A stretch of 64,000 nt of DNA, taken from a phage. A program made the position numbers and the translations under genes. This document shows, one piece after another, positions 2,396 through 28,709 of this stretch; the stretch's first letter is position 1, and the number at the start of each line of letters is the position of its first letter. Location: sequence record PZ338877.1. The stretch is one strand, 5' to 3'. The notes under the pieces were generated by a model that did no database searches, had not been told where the DNA came from, and saw only the letters and a list, made by a program, of their open reading frames with translations.

Positions 2396-2421
2396 AAAGG
2401 CTCCCGTAAGAAGGAGCCTTA
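2396..2421. terminator. hairpin terminator between convergent genes
   Basis: AAGGCTCC-loop-GGAGCCTT stem flanked by A-run on plus (T-run on minus); lies between td (+) and minus-strand gene. Confidence 0.55.
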
Positions 2422-2425
2422 AACT

Positions 2426-2797
2426 TTACTTTTCAGTATTCTTTGTGTTCTTCTCAGTAATAGCTTGGAGGGCTGATACTGATTGAGCCAGATTGTTAAC
2501 ACTATCAGAGAATTTATCAAGAGTCTTAGTAAGTTTTGCGTTCTCACCCTTAACATTCTCTAACTGGACTTTCTGGTTCTCCATCCCTAGCTGAAGCAGC
2601 CTCATATCAGACTGTAAATCACGAATAGCTGAATAATTACTTTTGGAATAATTATCTAACTGCTGTAACTTTGTTGTGATAGACACTTCTTGCTTACCAT
2701 CCGAGACTTGCATGGTGGTATACATCCCAATAACACTAAAAATACCAACTACAATTGCACCAATATTATTTTTAAAAGCTTCCTCTAGCCACTTCAT
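2426..2797 (-). CDS. membrane-anchored coiled-coil protein (spanin-like or tail-fiber-associated)
   Basis: 123 aa; N-terminal hydrophobic helix then heptad-like coiled-coil; 4-nt overlap with upstream ORF. Confidence 0.45.
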   Translation of the reverse strand: MKWLEEAFKNNIGAIVVGIFSVIGMYTTMQVSDGKQEVSITTKLQQLDNYSKSNYSAIRDLQSDMRLLQLGMENQKVQLENVKGENAKLTKTLDKFSDSVNNLAQSVSALQAITEKNTKNTEK

Positions 2798-2991
2798 TTA
2801 TTCTCCCCCTTAAAAGCTTTTTCTAAGTTATCTACGAACTCATCATCAATAGGTGTGTCTGTCTTACTCGCAAGGTATCTTGCAAGCCTAAAGAACACTT
2901 TCTCAATCATGTATTCACTTAGAAGGGATAAAATGAGTTTCCAGAAGAAGCTACCTAGATTTTTTAGAAGAATTGCTAGGATTGTAGGCAT
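2794..2991 (-). CDS. small membrane protein (holin-like?)
   Basis: 65 aa; hydrophobic N-terminus, charged C-terminus; GAGGTGA RBS. Confidence 0.4.
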   Translation of the reverse strand: MPTILAILLKNLGSFFWKLILSLLSEYMIEKVFFRLARYLASKTDTPIDDEFVDNLEKAFKGENK

Positions 2992-3070
2992 TTAATCACC
3001 TCATCAGCCAAGATGGTGAGAATACCCATAAAGAATATTAACACCATCTTAACAATCAGTCAATAAGGGA

Positions 3071-5416
3071 TTAAGCAGTTCTTACCCAAGCCATTAACTT
3101 GTAGAACTGGTTAGTAACACTAAATGCTGAACCAGAACCTGTACCCCCAGTGTTACCACTTACTGTGTGACTGTGAGCACCAATACCAACTGAGTGAGCG
3201 TGGTTACCAGCAGACGCAGCAGTACCACTTACAGAGTGGGTGTGAGCACCGTTAGCATCAGTGTAACCCGGCCCTGAACCAACGTATGCACCACCACCAC
3301 CAGAATAGTGCTGTGAGTTCTGACCAATCCACGAAATAGAGTGGTTGTGGTTACCAGCAGATGAAGTAGAGCCACTTACAGAGTGACTGTGAGCACCAGT
3401 TGTGTTAGTGTTTTTTGTTCCGTAGTCAAAAGATGAAGTGGTAGCAGAAAAACTGTGAGTGTGTGAAGGCAAGTTCCCAACAGCTAACGTCACAGAGTCT
3501 GAACCACCAGTTGTAGCAACATCTGAACCGTTTGCTGCTGCAATTCTGATAGTTCTACCAACACCATTGTTGAGGTACGTCCAAGTTAGACCAGGCAGTG
3601 CTGTATTAGGGTCAACATTACTGTTAAACCATGTCACAATACCCACTGGATAGATTTTATTAAGGTCTGTAGAATCACTTACTGCCTGTGCAATCTTCTG
3701 GTCAGTTTCAGTTTTAGTGTATGCACCAAGCTCTGAAGGGGTTGGTTTAAATGCCGTTGAATACAACTGTGCAGTTCCAACATATTCTCCATCTGACCCA
3801 TAAGCATATGTGAAGACATCAAGACCTTTAGACCCATATGTAAAAGAAATACCTCTAGCATGAGCAATACCAGCAGAATGTGCTACATGGATGGCTAAAT
3901 CTTTCATACCCTGCTCAATATCGTTGTTTCTTACAAACCCTGAATAGTCTTTATTGAATGATGCTGTGTCATCCAACCTATTAGTTGTCCTTACCATTAA
4001 AGATTGGTTTAACAGTTTTGTTTTTAAGAAATATCTAGCATCAATGTTAGTCCAATCTGAAGGCTGAACTTGACCAATGATTTTCACATTTTTATTCAAC
4101 AAGAAAACATCTTGCATATAAATCGTAGTTGCAGTGCTGCTGTTATGGATAATAAGTCTTTCTGGGTTGGATGATTCCCCATTCCCAATGTACCACCTTC
4201 TAACACCATCAGCATTATGACCAGCAAAGTATAGCTCTCCGTCTTGTGTAGTATTCTTTAGCTGTAACAATGAGCCATTCTGATTAATAATCTGTGCAGA
4301 CCTGAAAGTGTTCACATCACTTAACTTAGCAAGATTACTCAAAGTTCCTGCTGGGATGTATCTAGCGTCAATGTTAGTCCAATCTGAAGGCTGAACTTGA
4401 CCAGTGATTTTCACAGTCTTAGTAGTGGTAATCACATTTGACAAAGAGATAGTTGTACTCGTGGTGTAGTTATGTAGGTTGACTACAGAATCAGAGTTAT
4501 CAGTCCCTAAGTAGAACTTGTTTGTCCCATCAGCTTTCTGACCAAGCAGGTATAGCCCAGTTGCATCAGAGGCATTTTTAATAACTAGCACAGCATTATC
4601 TCTAGTGATATTGAACTCTCCTACAAAATTATTAATACCCCTGAAGGTGTTATTACCAACTAGCTGTGCAAATCTCTGATTAGCTGCCGTCTGTGTGAAG
4701 TATCTAGCATCTAAGTTAGACCAATCAGAAGGTTGAACTTGACCAGTAATCTGGAGAGACTTGTTCACAGTGATTAAGCTATCCAAAATAGCTACATATG
4801 CACCAGATTTAACATTTTTTAAAACAAGATTGTCTGTACCTTTGTTATCATTACCTAGATACCACCTGTTAGTACCATCTGCATCTTGACCGCGAATATA
4901 CAGCGGCATTCCTTGTGTAATATTCTTAACAATAATAGTTTCATTATCAGATAGAATATTTTGAGTACCTCTAAAGGTGTTACTTGCAGCCAATCTTGAG
5001 TATCTTGCATCATTCTCTTCATTAGTTCTCATCCCAAGCTCATTAGGGCTTGGCTTATTCAGAGTATGATAAACAGTTGCCGACCTTGAAGCATCTGCAA
5101 TAGTTAGTTTAAGGCCATTTGCGTTAATTTTAAAAGTCTTTAAAACATCCCCGATATTAATCTCAGAAGAGCCTGTTGGGTCAAAGACTGCCTTACCACC
5201 ATAAAGTAACTTAACAATCCCTAAGTCACCCGTCATAGTACTACCAGCAATCTGGACAAATCTCTCAAGCTTAAAAGACGCTAAGAAGTCTTGATAGGTC
5301 ATTCGACGGTCTTCATCACCTAGCATTTCAGGTCTCTTTTTAACCCTGACATGGAGAAGGTCGTCTGAACGAATTGTATCAATTGAGTTTAATTCACTCA
5401 ACTTGTAATCTGCCAT
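3071..5416 (-). CDS. tail fiber protein (long, distal; lambda Stf / T4 gp37-like tip)
   Basis: Track ORF 3071-5566 trimmed to internal Met51 (AAGAGGA RBS; avoids 104-nt overlap with upstream gene); three internal repeats containing QPSDW(T/S)N(I/L)DARY; C-terminal His-x-His motifs and SFDYGTK repeat. Confidence 0.8.
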
Positions 5417-5429
5417 TATAAATTTTCCT

Positions 5430-5451
5430 CTTAAAAGGGGCTTTATAGCCC
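5430..5451 (-). promoter_or_regulatory. intergenic stem-loop between the two tail fiber genes
   Basis: GGGGCT-loop-AGCCCC hairpin in the 46-nt spacer; same hairpin family recurs elsewhere in window. Confidence 0.4.
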
Positions 5452-5462
5452 CTGTAAAGAAA

Positions 5463-6611
5463 TTAAGCTGTTCTCTGCCATACATACAATACGAAGGATG
5501 GCTGTTCAACACTAAATGCTTGACCAGAACCAGTTGTACCAGTTGTACCAGAGTGTGAATGCTCACCTGCTCCGGTTACTGTTACTGTTGCTGAGTGGTT
5601 GTGGGAACCAATTGCAACAGTATGGCTGTGAGCACCAATACCAACCGTGTGATTATGCGCACCAATTGCTACAGAGTGAGTGTGGTTGTTAGCTGTTGTC
5701 AATGTAGCTCTTGGGTCATAGCTTGCCCCCTCAACCGATAAACCTCTCCAGCCACCATCAGCATAGCCACGGTTAATGAATGTTGTTTGTGTTAAACCAG
5801 CAGAACTTGTTGTTCTGTTGCCATAGTCATAAGTAGATACGGTCTTGGTTCCGTAGTCAAACGTGGTAGTTCCTTTAGTACCATAATCAAAAGCACTGAT
5901 AGAGGCCGTTGCACCATGAGTGTGACCACCACCAGTGACGTACACTGAGTGGGTATGTGCAGGGATGTTATTAACCGTCAGTGCAGTAGTCTGTGAACCA
6001 AACGTTGAACCAACTGGCCTAGAATCACTATCATAACCTACAAGTGCTCTCCCTTTTGAGACTAACTCCCAAGTACCTCCACAAATTAAATATGTAGAGG
6101 GGTTTGCAGGATTCATAGAGAGATGGATAGTACCTACTGGATAAGAAGCCTGAACAGCCTTGTACAAGTTATTTACTGCTCTTGCTGTAGCATACTTATC
6201 TGCATCTTCATTATAAAGGTTAGATGTTGTCCAGTTCTGGACATTACTTAAACCAACCTGTGCCTTAGTTGTATTGTGTGGGTTGCTCTTGTCATTAATA
6301 TGCTCTTGAATAAGGCTATTAACCTCTTCTGAAGACATAATCTGGAGATTTTTTCTTGCCTCAGCTACATTAACAATATCTGATAAGTTATTTGCAGCGA
6401 CTAACTGAAGAGCATTAATAACATTATCTAAACCAATTTGTGTCTTAGTAACACCATGAGGGTTATTTCTTAGGCTTGAGTGTGGAGCAAGTAATTGCTC
6501 AAGAGTACATCTCTTATCCTCAATACCCTGCTTAAGATGGAAGATATCACTAAGGTCAATTGGTAAGGCTGCTTGAGGCAAGGCACTAATTTGAATTTCA
6601 CCTACTGCCAT
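5463..6611 (-). CDS. tail fiber protein (paralog with His-rich C-terminal tip)
   Basis: 382 aa; NPH..TK.Q.GL.NV fibre repeats at N-terminus; C-terminus with FDYGTK x3 and HxH array ending ...W(Q/V)RTA like the neighbouring fiber. Confidence 0.75.
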
Positions 6612-6613
6612 TA

Positions 6614-14632
<8,019 letters not shown>

Positions 14633-26333: not shown

Positions 26334-26409
26334 TGGAGAATCCGAAGGGACTCGAACCCTTATAAACCTGTTTTGCAGACAGGCACATATCCATTTCTGT
26401 CACGGATTC
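26334..26409 (-). tRNA. tRNA-Cys (GCA)
   Basis: 7-bp acceptor pairing, T-loop TTCGAGT, anticodon loop CT-GCA-AA on reverse complement. Confidence 0.6.
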
Positions 26410-26413
26410 AAAT

Positions 26414-26506
26414 TGGAGGAAGATACCAGACTTGAACTGGTACACCGATTTCTCAGCTACTGGCAGTTTAGCAAACTGCTCCCTTACCTTTTAGGGTTAA
26501 TCTTCC
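26414..26506 (-). tRNA. tRNA-Ser (GCT), long variable arm
   Basis: 93 nt; acceptor pairing ATCTTCC/GGAAGAT, T-loop TTCAAGT, anticodon loop TT-GCT-AA. Confidence 0.6.
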
Positions 26507-26507
26507 A

Positions 26508-27242
26508 TTATTTCTGTAATGCGTTCTTCATTTCTGGTGTTGCAATAGTGTCAATCACACCAGTTTTACAAGCATCATCAAACCAGTCTGGTAAGATACC
26601 TGCTAAGAACCCATTGATATTCGTTTTAAGGTACTCTGCAATAAGGGCAGCTTCTTCTTCAATCATCTGCACAACTTCATCTGCATAAGCTGTAATCTTC
26701 GAGATACCTTCATTAATCTTACTAACAGCTTGATTAGCTAAATCAGAAATAGTATCAAGACCTTTATCAATAGCATCCTGTAAGTCGCTTAATACACCAT
26801 TAACGCCATCTAGTGTGCTGTTAATTGTATCCATAGCTTTTTGACCATACTCTGTAGCAACACCCATAATACCACTAAATGGTGTACAACCAACTTGCTC
26901 TCCTGCTGCACCCATAACATTGGAGTAGCCTTTTGCTACCTGCATACGTGAGGAAAACTCATCAATAGATTTTTGACCATAATCTGTCAATGTTTTAGTA
27001 GTTGCTGTAGTGCTTGTCAGACTCGTTGTAAAGCTATTAAGCAGAACTGTTGTAAGTCCAGCAGCAATGAGCTTATCCTTCATTGTAGGGTCTGTTACAG
27101 AGCTAATAGAGCTTACAAGTGATGTAGAGGCAGCTACGGTTCCACCTAGAACTGCTGCACCAGTAATAAGGGGATTAGAAAACCCTCTACCGGTTTTTAA
27201 GAGATTAAAAATCTCCTTACCTTGTTCTGTCATCTCTTTCAT
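26508..27242 (-). CDS. hypothetical protein embedded in tRNA cluster
   Basis: Track ORF trimmed to Met22 (AGGTG RBS) because upstream part overlaps a tRNA; 244 aa. Confidence 0.5.
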   Translation of the reverse strand: MKEMTEQGKEIFNLLKTGRGFSNPLITGAAVLGGTVAASTSLVSSISSVTDPTMKDKLIAAGLTTVLLNSFTTSLTSTTATTKTLTDYGQKSIDEFSSRMQVAKGYSNVMGAAGEQVGCTPFSGIMGVATEYGQKAMDTINSTLDGVNGVLSDLQDAIDKGLDTISDLANQAVSKINEGISKITAYADEVVQMIEEEAALIAEYLKTNINGFLAGILPDWFDDACKTGVIDTIATPEMKNALQK

Positions 27243-27260
27243 TAAGCACCTTTGAAATTG

Positions 27261-27335
27261 GTAGTCCAGTGGGATTTGAACCCTCTTCTCATGTTTTTCA
27301 GACACGCGCTTTAACCATATAAGCTACTTGGACTA
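27261..27335 (-). tRNA. tRNA-Phe (GAA)
   Basis: 7-bp acceptor TAGTCCA/TGGACTA, T-loop TTCAAAT, anticodon loop CT-GAA-AA. Confidence 0.55.
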
Positions 27336-27340
27336 TAAAT

Positions 27341-27416
27341 TGGGGTGACCTACGGGATTTGAACCCGTATAGACCATGTTCACAGCATGGGTCATTACCA
27401 TTTATGATAAGGCCAC
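27341..27416 (-). tRNA. tRNA-His (GTG)
   Basis: Acceptor pairing with one G-U, T-loop TTCAAAT, anticodon loop CT-GTG-AA. Confidence 0.6.
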
Positions 27417-27447
27417 ATTTAAGGACTCTCGTAAGAATCCTTAGAAG

Positions 27448-27523
27448 TGGCAGCGGCATAAGGATTTGAACCTTAATAAGACAGCTTCAGAGACTGCTGC
27501 ATTGCCAGTTATGCTATACCGCT
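27448..27523 (-). tRNA. tRNA-Gln (CTG), tentative
   Basis: Acceptor pairing, T-loop TTCAAAT; anticodon loop read as CT-CTG-AA with wobble-rich stem. Confidence 0.45.
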
Positions 27524-27528
27524 AAATT

Positions 27529-27599
27529 TGGTACTCCATATCGGATTCGAACCGATACATAACACAGATTTTAAGTCTGGCCTCTCTGCCAATTGGAGT
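27529..27599 (-). tRNA. tRNA, isotype undetermined (possible TAA anticodon)
   Basis: T-arm ATCGG-TTCGAAT-CCGAT and acceptor pairing clear; anticodon arm ambiguous, short body. Confidence 0.4.
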
Positions 27600-27609
27600 A
27601 ATGGAGCAT

Positions 27610-27685
27610 TGGCGGGGGATGTTGGAATTGAACCAACTTCTTCGATTTCAAAGACCGAGGTTTTAACCTTGTAAACTAATCCCCT
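27610..27685 (-). tRNA. tRNA-Gln (TTG)
   Basis: T-loop TTCAATT, anticodon stem TCGGT/ATCGA, loop CT-TTG-AA. Confidence 0.5.
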
Positions 27686-27693
27686 TTAAATCT

Positions 27694-28251
27694 TTACTTT
27701 CTTAGTGGATGAATAAAGAATGCCAACATAACTCTTTCCCTTGAGAATGCTCTTTCTTCTGGGACAACACTTTTAAGTTTCCATCCAACATAAATTCTCC
27801 AGTAGAATTGTTTACCAAAGACTTTAATTGATGGGATAAAGGCGAATAATCCCCAAGCATTACTGTTCCACATTAGGAGATAACCTGTCTGATTATCTTC
27901 AGGGTCAGAACTTACGTTGATATTACCTTTCCACTTAGTAACATCTTTTACATCTCTTCCTAACACATGGTAAGAGAAGTTATAAGCTTTGTTTCTCCAG
28001 AGCCATCCAACTCTCTGCAAATAGACACCCAGCTTACCAATCTTTCTAATCTTAGCCCATCTTTTAATGTGACCTTCATCACCATCAATTGGGTTGTCAT
28101 ATGTCTCCATCCATCTGAATCCGAAAGGTAGATGTCCTTTCTTCTCACTATAGAATGGAACTACAAAAGGTGCTAAGATAACTGCTAAGGTTGCTGCCAA
28201 TGGGTCTAACAAAGCTAGGAAAATCCATGAAGCATACTTCAAATATCTCAT
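27694..28251 (-). CDS. membrane protein embedded in tRNA cluster
   Basis: 185 aa; hydrophobic N-terminal segments, Trp/Lys-rich. Confidence 0.5.
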   Translation of the reverse strand: MRYLKYASWIFLALLDPLAATLAVILAPFVVPFYSEKKGHLPFGFRWMETYDNPIDGDEGHIKRWAKIRKIGKLGVYLQRVGWLWRNKAYNFSYHVLGRDVKDVTKWKGNINVSSDPEDNQTGYLLMWNSNAWGLFAFIPSIKVFGKQFYWRIYVGWKLKSVVPEERAFSRERVMLAFFIHPLRK

Positions 28252-28270
28252 CTAAATAGCCTCTTTAAAT

Positions 28271-28346
28271 TGGTGCAGGATAAGGGATTCGAACCCCTAT
28301 TAACAGCTTCGTAGACTGCTGCTCTATCCATTTGAACTAATCCTGC
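28271..28346 (-). tRNA. tRNA-Arg (ACG)
   Basis: Exact 7-bp acceptor GCAGGAT/ATCCTGC, T-loop TTCGAAT, anticodon loop CT-ACG-AA. Confidence 0.5.
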
Positions 28347-28460
28347 TTACCTACAAGAACACCATACAGTTTTTCACAATCTTTGTTTTTACGTCTGTTT
28401 AGGTATGACGCTCTAAACTTTTTTGCTATTGACTTATCACTCATAGTGCTCTCCCAAAAT

Positions 28461-28538
28461 TGGTGTTCCAAGACGGATTCGAACCGTCACTAGTACAAGG
28501 TTTGAGCTTGCATCCTCTGCCAATTGGGATATTGGAAC
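28461..28538 (-). tRNA. tRNA with CAA anticodon (Leu-type anticodon but short type-I body)
   Basis: Perfect 7-bp acceptor GTTCCAA/TTGGAAC, T-arm GACGG-TTCGAAT-CCGTC, anticodon stem GCAAG/CTTGT, loop CT-CAA-AC. Confidence 0.45.
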
Positions 28539-28539
28539 A

Positions 28540-28612
28540 TGGTGCTCACTAAAGGACTTGAACCTTTTTCTTCATCTTGTAAGGGTGATGTTTTACCATA
28601 TAAACTAAGCGA
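28540..28612 (-). tRNA. tRNA-like sequence (possible pseudo-tRNA)
   Basis: Good T-arm AAAGG-TTCAAGT-CCTTT and CCA end, but acceptor and anticodon stems pair poorly. Confidence 0.3.
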
Positions 28613-28705
28613 GTATGAAAGAGGTCTGAAGTTGTGCCGCTCACTCAACTCCGTGGAATTTGTTACGGTCTTCAGTTGACACCAGCGGTCTTTCACTTGA
28701 CCTCT
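28612..28705 (-). ncRNA. structured RNA candidate bounded by 7-bp terminal inverted repeat
   Basis: AGAGGTC...GACCTCT ends; internal CTGAAGACCGT motif similar to the repeated elements further right. Confidence 0.25.
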
Positions 28706-28709
28706 GAAT

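Follow-up and report, generated by a model that had tools for sequence, protein, structure and literature searches.

H-x-H motifs in the needle of the T4 long tail fibre protein gp37 coordinate Fe2+ octahedrally on the threefold axis, and the folding of gp37 needs both gp38 and gp57A. In T4, lambda, Mu and P2, a chaperone gene of the gp38/Tfa type typically lies downstream; it is not part of the tip fold itself. Among related phages, VpaE1 carries two proteins, gp74 and gp75, that share C-terminal homology with the T4 gp37 adhesin; mass spectrometry (MS) located both in the virion, and the receptor is the LPS core (PMC4690856). Sf14, a Mooglevirus, has two tail fibre sets, both proteins of which were detected in particles by MS and cryo-EM (PMC11821841). 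In Bas63 (JohannRWettstein), cryo-EM revealed a short tail fibre (STF) of 430 Å and a long tail fibre (LTF) of 630 Å, both in the virion and containing seven and six HxH motifs, respectively, and the combination of cryo-EM and AlphaFold 3 placed a collar, an HxH needle and a head at the tip of each (PMC12609058). The Bas63 LTF has five beta-helix repeat domains, and its rod combines the beta-helix with a 'triple alpha-helix and turn', as in the T4 gp34 rod (PMC12609058). Infection by Bas63 is fully dependent on an intact LPS core (PMC8594841), and the main text of the PhageMaP report gives Bas63 positions 0 to ~21,000 as uniformly essential (PMC11482910).

The window analysed here, 64,000 nt of the phage record PZ338877.1, is a Felixounavirus genome with ~95-97% identity to the phages CL1, C600M2 and Bas63, and CL1 is collinear with the whole window at 90-97%. 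A megablast search with the fibre locus recovered 13 Felixounavirus genomes at 92-96% identity, with at least 80% of the locus covered. The gene order is that of Bas63, namely platform, STF, LTF, a 65-aa ORF, a 123-aa ORF and a convergent thymidylate synthase, and from the baseplate genes to thymidylate synthase the window is fully syntenic with both Bas63 and CL1. The two fibre ORFs proposed in the initial annotation are real and lie on the minus strand, as do all features given below as start..end.

The STF gene (5463..6611) encodes a protein of 382 aa, the orthologue of Bas63 gp26, Sf14 gp52 and VpaE1 gp74, which shares 99.5% identity with Bas63 gp26 and 98.7% with the CL1 STF and is matched by PHROG 2097 'tail fiber protein' (E 2.7e-128). 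Directly upstream lies a 100-aa gene (6614..6916; PHROG 4141, E 3e-62), syntenic with bas63_0025 and orthologous to the gene for Bas63 gp25, the LTF-platform protein that forms a T4 gp9-like attachment point (PMC12609058). By analogy with Bas63, the product of 6614..6916 may likewise serve as the LTF platform (PMC12609058). The LTF gene (3071..5416) encodes 781 aa and is orthologous to Bas63 gp27, Sf14 gp53 and VpaE1 gp75. Its mechanically called ORF spanned 3071-5566, with a GTG start and an overlap with the STF gene; the true start is the ATG at 5416 (MADYKL...), with the RBS AAGAGGA 8 nt upstream, in agreement with the annotated orthologues of Bas63 and CL1. PHROG 4277 'tail fiber protein' matches the LTF over its full length (1204 bits), and its identity is 86% with the LTF of CL1 and 73% with Bas63 gp27. 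NCBIfam gave no match for either fibre. The 46-nt spacer that separates the STF stop codon from the LTF start codon contains a stem-loop (5432..5453), AGGGGCT-N4-AGCCCCT followed by TTTT, with a folding energy of -16.4 kcal/mol in a 66-nt context (z -2.3). Bas63, CL1, nataliec and the Mooglevirus Sf14 keep the stem unchanged and differ in the loop, and the element might function as an attenuator or as a 3' end stabiliser.

Three internal LTF repeats of ~100 aa carrying a QPSDW motif had been described in the initial annotation, and they were recovered here as tandem units of ~110 aa (aa 129-241, 242-355 and 356-464; 4025..5032) with pairwise identities of 42-50% and alignment z values of 26-45 vs shuffles. 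Each unit ends in GQVQPSDW[ST]N[IL]DARY, with QPSDW[ST]N[IL]DARY at aa 228, 342 and 451. The Pfam family gp37_trimer (PF20744) matches the LTF in three stretches (E 1.6e-49; 166.3 bits vs a cutoff of 21.7), and the units, predicted beta-helix rod domains, correspond to three of the five beta-helix domains of the Bas63 LTF. Between the repeats and the tip lies a variable cassette (aa ~455-560; 3737..4054) that is swapped relative to the closest genomes: its identity to Bas63 and CL1 is only 20-28% between flanks at 92-100%, and the megablast alignment with CL1 leaves a gap at 3748-4032. The nearest allele, at 94.8% identity, is that of phage skuden, and gp37 of T-even phages shares 35-40% identity with the cassette. 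This pattern of identities indicates that the LTF shaft underwent mosaic exchange. The shaft of the STF contains two copies of the motif NPHxxTKxQxGLxNV (aa 50-64 and 110-124; 6240..6464), and its aa ~100-130 are matched by many PHROG fibre families.

Both fibres had been assigned His-rich receptor-binding tips of the T4 gp37/lambda Stf type, and the homology searches bear this assignment out. In the STF the tip occupies aa ~146-382 (5466..6176) and in the LTF aa 575-781 (3074..3694), each with a predicted collar (YPVG... in the LTF), HxH needle, head and return strand, the latter ending in WQRTA and WVRTA, respectively. With phmmer, both proteins matched the T4 gp37 tip structure 2XGF, which comprises the gp37 C-terminal region (residues 785-1026), at E 8e-14 for the LTF and 1e-14 for the STF, residues 146-352 of the STF aligning with 18-229 of the chain. 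Lambda Stf orf-314 was matched at E 3e-15 by the LTF and 1e-12 by the STF, and full-length T4 gp37 at E 3e-18 and 2e-15 (LTF and STF, in the order of the tip matches). The Pfam domain Gp10_C (PF21939) was found in the STF with 65.1 bits vs a cutoff of 27; profile positions 3-139 cover aa 154-381 and are interrupted by an insertion of ~90 aa, the needle, and the T4 gp10 chains 2FKK and 5HX2 also match the STF (E 1e-6). In the LTF, Gp10_C remains below the Pfam cutoff (20.5 vs 27 bits); the collar of the LTF does align with those of the STF and T4, and Phage_fiber (PF03335) is recognised in the LTF tip with 22.4 bits vs a cutoff of 20.

Gly, Ser, Thr and His are abundant in the tips, whose HMMER bias score is high, as might fit a purely compositional, low-complexity origin of the His-rich runs that would leave them structurally meaningless. 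We give this explanation practically no credence. Seven H-x-H motifs are present in the STF (aa 219, 230, 310, 319, 328, 337 and 351) and six in the LTF (aa 652, 676, 690, 725, 739 and 748), whereas 2000 composition-preserving shuffles gave mean counts of 1.0 (maximum 5) and 0.53 (maximum 4), respectively, so the runs noted in both tips lie far above chance, several-fold over expectation. The low-complexity origin is refuted by the alignments to T4 gp37, in which the motifs correspond position for position to the T4 metal-binding motifs and one block is nearly identical. All six LTF motifs are in register with T4 H883, H915, H929, H966, H980 and H989 (six of the seven T4 needle motifs), and STF 219, 310, 319 and 328 align with T4 883, 966, 980 and 989; STF 337 (GSHNH) resembles T4 998 (GSHGH) by motif, MAFFT having placed this block offset. 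The homology also takes in the collar (YP[VI]G...), which is not repetitive. The description of FDYGTK repeats in both fibres was overstated, because the LTF tip has a single copy (aa 663); it stands for the STF, where three tandem units follow one another every 10 aa (FDYGTK at 241 and 251, YDYGNR at 261).

An AlphaFold2 single-sequence monomer model of the STF tip (aa 140-382) had a mean pLDDT of 33.6 and a pTM of 0.14 and was unusable. A trimeric six-stranded needle architecture may be carried over to the STF from the Bas63 STF, which is 99.5% identical, an analogy that covers the architecture and not the metal (PMC12609058); metal would presumably be bound by both needles of this phage. 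Because the two genes are orthologous to Bas63 gp26/gp27, the tips are homologous to those of T4 and lambda, the H-x-H motifs are in register, and collar, rod repeats and the published work all agree, we are highly confident that the region encodes the homotrimeric STF and LTF side fibres of a Felix O1-like E. coli myophage with gp37/Stf-type tips; no observation speaks against this identification.

The shared tip type with divergent shafts had been ascribed to duplication and domain swapping. The shared tip type itself and the mosaic shaft of the LTF are borne out, while a recent duplication of the tip within the genome, followed by shaft swapping, is very unlikely. The two genes are adjacent, and both tips have the ending AFSV-N9-W[QV]RTA reported for them, where T4 and lambda end in ...NIAFNYIVRLA instead. 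However, the STF and LTF tips share only 34.6% identity and 98 bits, a score no better than those obtained with T4 gp37 (98 bits for the STF, 106 bits for the LTF) or between the LTF and lambda Stf (also 106 bits), so that any duplication of the tip must be ancient. The tips are far nearer their orthologues in Mooglevirus Sf14, where the pair is kept (290 and 218 bits), which places the origin of the STF/LTF pair before the Felixounavirus-Mooglevirus split. These bit scores disfavour a recent event, and the pair is better read as an old paralogy or as the result of independent module acquisition.

Downstream of the LTF, the two small ORFs described in the initial annotation are present (2794..2991, 65 aa; 2426..2797, 123 aa) and overlap by ATGA. 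The statement that no Tfa/gp38-type chaperone follows the fibre genes also stands: Pfam, PHROGs and NCBIfam yielded no chaperone family for either ORF, and phmmer (E<=10) found no homologue of T4 gp38, T4 gp57A or lambda Tfa among the ORFs in all six frames of the window and the complete CL1 genome, a search by single sequences that may miss remote homologues. Since homologues of gp38 and gp57A were not found, the route of fibre assembly may differ from that of T4. The 65-aa protein, a small membrane protein of widespread occurrence, has an N-terminal hydrophobic segment (Kyte-Doolittle maximum 1.56) and an acidic C-terminus, belongs to PHROG 402 (unknown function), has no Pfam or NCBIfam match and is probably not part of a fibre. 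The 123-aa protein, likewise not a likely fibre component, has one hydrophobic segment, a predicted TM segment (aa 11-30, Kyte-Doolittle maximum 1.62), followed by a coiled coil; it shows only weak coiled-coil matches in Pfam and weak, sub-threshold ones in NCBIfam. It is annotated as 'holin' in many Ounavirinae records, and a class-III holin was assigned for the genus by lysis specialists (PMC4392139). Its single hydrophobic segment with a coiled coil behind it is compatible with that T4 T-like class, which has one N-terminal TMD, an N-in/C-out topology and a large periplasmic domain. On this annotation and literature we regard it as a putative class-III holin, to which phmmer found no sequence similarity in T4 T or ECD7 T; homologues of these two T holins were likewise not found among the six-frame ORFs of the window or CL1 (phmmer, E<=10). 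The transcription unit for late fibre and holin genes would be closed by a hairpin resembling an intrinsic terminator (2397..2420), with a 9-bp stem containing 5 GC pairs followed by TTTTTGTTTTA, situated between the convergent stops of the 123-aa ORF (2426) and thymidylate synthase (2389).

That one or both of these ORFs supply the missing fibre chaperone in the position of T4 gp38 or lambda Tfa is very improbable. Their location directly after the LTF, in one transcription unit and with translational coupling, would suit such a role, as would the lack of gp38, Tfa and gp57A homologues elsewhere in the window and CL1. Homologues of the 65-aa protein also have fibre or tail genes as neighbours in Krischvirus, where that of ECD7 is flanked by gp37 and holin t, in Kolesnikvirus, where it precedes a putative holin, and in 7-11-like podophages, where it is part of the tail module. 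However, both proteins have hydrophobic N-termini as in membrane proteins, whereas known fibre chaperones are soluble; no chaperone family was recognised in them; and in a Vibrio phage the neighbour of the 65-aa homologue is an endolysin-type peptidase, away from any fibre gene. The 123-aa protein has its class-III holin assignment, and T4 also places holin t after the fibre genes (PMC4392139). In Krischvirus, the 65-aa homologue is not a replacement for gp38, because gp38 is kept ~55 kb away (bioRxiv 10.64898/2026.04.02.716166). Neither ORF is related to the 21.8-kDa DUF4376 chaperone of Alteromonas V22 (PMC7289586). A spanin pair made of the 123-aa protein as i-spanin and an embedded 30-aa ORF (2656-2748; MVFLVLLGC..., lipobox-like) as o-spanin was also rejected: in CL1, the annotated spanins, among them an i-/o-spanin pair, and the lysin lie at other places in the genome, and the mini-ORF has a TTG start, no charged n-region and a mature product that would be just 22 aa long. 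A broader proposal, still improbable though marginally less so than the chaperone role, is that gp37-type needles are made here without a chaperone of the gp38, Tfa or gp57A type, through self-folding, host factors or an unrecognised factor, for which the 65-aa protein (PHROG 402) would be the best candidate. The Sf14 orthologue of the 123-aa protein was found by MS in particles, and an unassigned, helix-rich trimeric cap sits on the tail needle in the Bas63 and Sf14 maps; the 'holin' could be this cap, an idea weaker than that of chaperone-free needles.

With the location in the virion, the trimeric architecture and the dependence on LPS taken from the work on relatives, the following model may be proposed. 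The LTF would attach through the small platform protein encoded at 6614-6916, and its shaft would consist of beta-helix repeats of ~110 aa of the T4 gp34/gp37 rod type together with the exchangeable pre-tip cassette. Each tip would combine a T4 gp10_C-like collar with a six-stranded beta needle, in which the chain ascends, makes a small head and descends to the collar; because it turns back down the needle, the C-terminal W[QV]RTA would lie at the collar. The H-x-H motifs of the three chains would stack on the needle axis and coordinate metal ions, and the head with its adjacent loops would contact the receptor, the LPS core for the genus. The order of events is presumably T4-like, the long fibre binding first and reversibly and the short fibre second, and the LPS moieties may be divided between the two fibres.

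The dual receptor specificity suggested in the initial annotation, an idea also raised for Sf14 (PMC11821841), stays a hypothesis. In its strongest form, the STF and LTF would be alternative, independently sufficient receptor-binding proteins for different hosts or LPS core types, and would not act in sequence, a scheme that we consider unlikely but to be taken seriously. Each fibre bears a complete gp37-type tip with a divergent head region, and within the genus the sequences of both tips are hypervariable (PMC12609058). Different receptors for the two fibres were suggested for Sf14 by its authors (PMC11821841), and near-identical phages set apart by single substitutions in either fibre differ in whether they require WaaY (PMC12548472). 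However, the STF is near-constant (99.5% and 98.7% identity to Bas63 and CL1) and it is the LTF shaft that varies, which looks like a conserved, common function of the STF and less like tuning to particular hosts; in Bas63, STF occupancy is stable and that of the LTF variable, which its authors read as a T4-like division of labour (PMC12609058). The fibre pair sets the LPS core types, and thus the E. coli, Salmonella and Shigella strains, open to a Felix O1-like phage, which gives the locus its relevance to phage typing and therapy.

Compared with the T4 gp37 tip, the tips described here share the homologous collar and needle, FDYGTK and a C-terminal strand leading back to the collar, but identity is only ~32-37% and the C-terminal signature differs. 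Unlike the T4 needle, that of the STF has extra FDYGTK units in place of two ascending H-x-H motifs and adds two others. The tip is carried by a single-protein fibre, whereas the T4 long fibre consists of four proteins; phmmer recovered no homologue of gp38 or gp57A from the window or CL1; and in the literature the felixounavirus receptor is the LPS core only, not OmpC. The LTF repeats resemble the T4 gp34/gp37 rod (PF20744, E 1.6e-49; PDB 5NXH, cited in PMC12609058), although Ounavirinae have their own number and sequence of repeats, which vary to an unusual degree from one species to another (PMC12609058). With lambda Stf (orf-401/orf-314), the LTF shares the HxH C-terminus of orf-314 at 48.5% identity over 136 aa, but the lambda tip is much nearer that of T4 (57.6% identity) than those of the STF and LTF, and lambda encodes the Tfa chaperone directly downstream, of which no homologue was found here. 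Sf14 gp52/gp53, its 'two long tail fibres', form an orthologous pair with the same synteny, the intergenic hairpin and both downstream ORFs, yet the tips are only 52-59% identical and contain 9 and 4 H-x-H motifs vs 7 and 6 here. With Bas63 gp26/gp27, H-x-H counts are equal (7 and 6), STF identity is 99.5%, and the N-terminus and the tip of the LTF agree at 82-100% identity, whereas the LTF repeat domains are 28-80% and the pre-tip cassette 20-28% identical, and the head-proximal LTF motif is HHxH in Bas63 and NHNH here. The initial finding is thus correct but ordinary, having been published since VpaE1 in 2015 and again with Sf14 and the Bas63 cryo-EM in 2025. Because fibre identity, tip architecture and virion presence are already in print, the window adds only another allele combination to these known systems, a Bas63-type STF joined to CL1-like LTF repeats and tip with a skuden-type pre-tip cassette.

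A megablast search with the fibre region (2400-7000) as query matched 241 phage records, nearly all of them felixounaviruses of Escherichia, Salmonella and Shigella, and the genome hosting the fibre locus is a Felixounavirus (Ounavirinae, a Felix O1-like myophage). ARAGORN located a cluster of 26 tRNA genes at 26334-31530 on the minus strand, 24 of which score above the Rfam gathering score; such a cluster is typical of Felix O1-like phages, and apart from the tRNAs nothing in the window reaches Rfam thresholds. The closest matches to the fibre region were CL1 and C600M2 (96.3% identity, 94% coverage), and Bas63 (JohannRWettstein) matched with 96.1% identity over 83% coverage. CL1 is collinear with the entire 64-kb window at 90-97% identity. 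The window, Bas63, CL1, nataliec and the Mooglevirus Sf14 have a common gene order around the fibre genes, consisting of baseplate genes, a 100-aa protein, a 382-aa short tail fibre (STF), a ~781-aa long tail fibre (LTF), a 65-aa ORF and a 123-aa ORF, after which thymidylate synthase and DHFR follow in convergent orientation. A 113-aa ORF at 11264-11605 (minus strand) is the positional equivalent of bas63_0019, whose product was named baseplate spacer gp19 (PMC12609058). The CL1 record lacks a counterpart because the two ends of that linear record flank this position, which most likely reflects how CL1 was assembled or where its record was cut.

Both fibre ORFs proposed in the initial annotation were found on the minus strand, STF (382 aa) at 5463-6611 and LTF (781 aa) at 3071-5416. 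The mechanical LTF ORF begins at GTG 5566 and so overlaps the STF gene; the true start is the ATG at 5416 (MADYKL...), which follows AAGAGGA and agrees with annotated orthologues. The runs of H-x-H motifs ascribed to both proteins are borne out, with six in LTF (aa 652, 676, 690, 725, 739 and 748) and seven in STF (aa 219, 230, 310, 319, 328, 337 and 351), compared to means of 0.5 and 1.0 in shuffles of the same proteins, which never gave more than 4 and 5, respectively. Both proteins also finish, as described, with AFSV-N9-W[QV]RTA. FDYGTK repeats had been claimed for both fibres, which was overstated: STF contains three 10-aa units in tandem (aa 241, 251 and, as YDYGNR, 261), but the LTF tip, the C-terminal receptor-binding part, has a single copy at aa 663. 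The three internal repeats of about 100 aa assigned to the larger fibre are consecutive units of ~110 aa (aa 129-241, 242-355 and 356-464), each closed by GQVQPSDW[ST]N[IL]DARY and pairwise 42-50% identical with z-scores of 26-45.

Family searches placed LTF over its full length in the tail-fibre family PHROG 4277 (1204 bits) and STF in the tail-fibre family PHROG 2097 (E 3e-128). In Pfam, LTF gave three gp37_trimer units (E 1.6e-49) and, within the tip, the 14-residue Phage_fiber repeat, and STF matched the C-terminal domain of T4 gp10 at 65 bits. In this STF match, aa 154-381 correspond to just 137 positions of the profile, indicating a collar domain carrying an insertion of ~90 residues. 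The top PDB match by sequence was 2XGF, the crystal structure of the T4 gp37 tip (E 8e-14 for LTF and 1e-14 for STF), with the STF match taking in nearly the entire crystallised fragment; T4 gp10 chains came next, at the collar. In local phmmer searches, both fibres matched full-length T4 gp37 (E 2e-15 to 3e-18) and lambda Stf orf-314 (E 1e-12 to 3e-15). A three-way alignment placed the six H-x-H motifs of LTF in register with T4 H883, H915, H929, H966, H980 and H989, revealed one 16-residue block nearly identical between T4 and STF, and identified FDYGTK as a T4 motif too. The proposed lambda Stf/T4 gp37-type assignment is thus upheld by direct homology, with the H-x-H register shared with T4. 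Single-sequence AlphaFold2 modelling of the STF tip gave a mean pLDDT of 33.6, an unusable model.

STF and LTF resemble each other only over their last 190-230 residues (34% identity, E 1e-16). With composition correction off, the two tips score 98 bits against each other, the same as the STF tip against T4 gp37, and the LTF tip scores 106 bits against both T4 gp37 and lambda Stf; against their own Sf14 orthologues, the tips reach 290 and 218 bits. A recent duplication as the origin of the shared tip, one form of the duplication proposed initially, is made very unlikely by these scores against T4 gp37, lambda Stf and Sf14. Judged by sequence, the tips are either old paralogues, the one sense in which duplication would stand, or members of one widespread family that were acquired as separate modules, and the pair was fixed before the Felixounavirus/Mooglevirus split. 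The shared C-terminal signature is the sole hint at a closer common ancestry of the two tips.

STF shares 99.5% identity with Bas63 gp26 and 98.7% with CL1 STF. LTF is mosaic: compared with Bas63, its first ~80 aa are 100% identical and its tip is 82-100% identical, with identity down to 28-80% in the repeat domains. A pre-tip cassette (3737-4054, minus strand; aa ~455-560) shares only 20-28% identity with the closest genomes, CL1 and Bas63; phage skuden carries a version that is 94.8% identical, the alleles of VpaE1, NBEco005 and KhF2 are ~65-69% identical, and a T-even gp37 segment is 35-40% identical. These identities clearly show recombination within the LTF shaft and mark the cassette as exchangeable; the variability of the shaft was already noted for Bas63 (PMC12609058).

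Consistent with the initial annotation, no Tfa/gp38-type gene follows the fibres: Pfam, PHROGs and NCBIfam assigned no chaperone family to either the 65-aa ORF (2794-2991) or the 123-aa ORF (2426-2797), both on the minus strand, and phmmer searches of the window and the complete CL1 genome gave no homologues of T4 gp38, T4 gp57A or lambda Tfa, even at E 10. In the 123-aa ORF, a single hydrophobic segment at aa 11-30 precedes a coiled coil. Many relatives carry this ORF under the annotation 'holin', and it was described by lysis specialists as a class-III, T4-like holin (PMC4392139); in T4, holin t closes the fibre operon. The CL1 spanins and lysin are annotated at other sites. The 65-aa ORF belongs to PHROG 402, a widespread small-protein family in the function-unknown category, with members in comparison loci L004 (5989-6228), L005 (5001-5210), L006 (4001-4210), L010 (4001-4201) and L011 (3995-4186). 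Its homologues separate gp37 from holin t in Krischvirus ECD7 and precede a putative holin in Kolesnikvirus. In a Vibrio phage the homologue neighbours an endolysin-type peptidase, and in 7-11-like podophages it sits inside the tail module. The Krischvirus homologue is ruled out as a gp38 substitute, since gp38 is retained there ~55 kb away (bioRxiv 10.64898/2026.04.02.716166). Given the empty chaperone searches, the holin evidence and the settings of the 65-aa homologues, the two small ORFs, described initially as membrane/coiled-coil proteins, probably form a membrane or lysis module, and a chaperone role for the pair is unlikely. Neither the fibre genes nor those downstream are broken down gene by gene in the main text of PhageMaP.

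The Sf14 orthologue of the 123-aa ORF (FDI99_gp102, or gp55; 5001-5375 of the Sf14 locus, L007; 92.7% identical) is among the proteins that MS detected in Sf14 particles (PMC11821841, Table 1), where membrane contamination is likely because the sample was a pelleted lysate (PMC11821841). A helix-rich trimeric cap with no protein assigned sits on the tail needle in the Sf14 and Bas63 maps (PMC11821841, PMC12609058), and linking it to the 123-aa 'holin' is speculative. A 30-aa ORF with a lipobox-like LLGC (MVFLVLLGC...) is embedded in the 123-aa gene in the +1 frame (2656-2748, minus strand); it is probably due to chance, given its TTG start, the lack of a charged n-region and the annotation of the CL1 spanins elsewhere. 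The late fibre/holin transcription unit ends at a strong terminator-like hairpin (2397-2420; 9-bp stem, then TTTTTGTTTTA), located between the 123-aa ORF and thymidylate synthase, which converge on it. Another stem-loop, AGGGGCT-N4-AGCCCCT followed by TTTT, occupies the gap that separates the STF stop codon from the start of LTF (5432-5453, minus strand), with an invariant stem and a variable loop in Bas63, CL1, nataliec and Sf14, the Sf14 version being without the T-run. Its role could be to attenuate transcription of LTF or to stabilise the STF mRNA at its 3' end, and this would agree with the sub-stoichiometric occupancy of LTF in Bas63 (PMC12609058).

By homology with 2XGF and the published Bas63 maps, with fibre architecture and virion location taken from the literature on relatives, each fibre is likely to be a homotrimer docked on the baseplate by its N-terminus, STF on a wedge protein and LTF on the trimeric platform protein encoded at 6614-6916. 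Distally, each chain would pass from the collar through an ascending needle strand to a small head and descend again, so that three chains provide six needle strands and the C-terminus goes back into the collar. Stacked H-x-H pairs of the three chains would face the axis, and we infer that they bind metal ions in both fibres, Fe2+ in the T4 needle, and stiffen the needle. The receptor, which for the genus is the LPS core (PMC4690856, PMC8594841, PMC12548472), would be bound by the head and nearby loops. Until they are deployed for binding, the fibres lie stowed along the sheath (PMC12609058, PMC11821841); each fibre may recognise a particular LPS moiety, and the long fibre may bind before the short one.

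The fibre pair is correctly described and already known, as the VpaE1, Sf14 and Bas63 papers cover it; the window adds only a new allele combination. In VpaE1 (2015), the C-termini of both fibres were reported to share homology with the T4 gp37 adhesin, the two proteins were present in CsCl-purified virions, and the receptor was the LPS core (PMC4690856). The Sf14 paper (2025) described a tail with two sets of fibres, put forward a two-receptor hypothesis and noted the absence of Mu-type chaperones (PMC11821841). In Bas63 (2025), STF and LTF measure 430 Å and 630 Å, both bear a collar, an HxH needle and a head, and LTF has five beta-helix rod domains (PMC12609058); the Bas63 tallies of 7 and 6 H-x-H motifs (PMC12609058) agree exactly with those of STF and LTF in the window.
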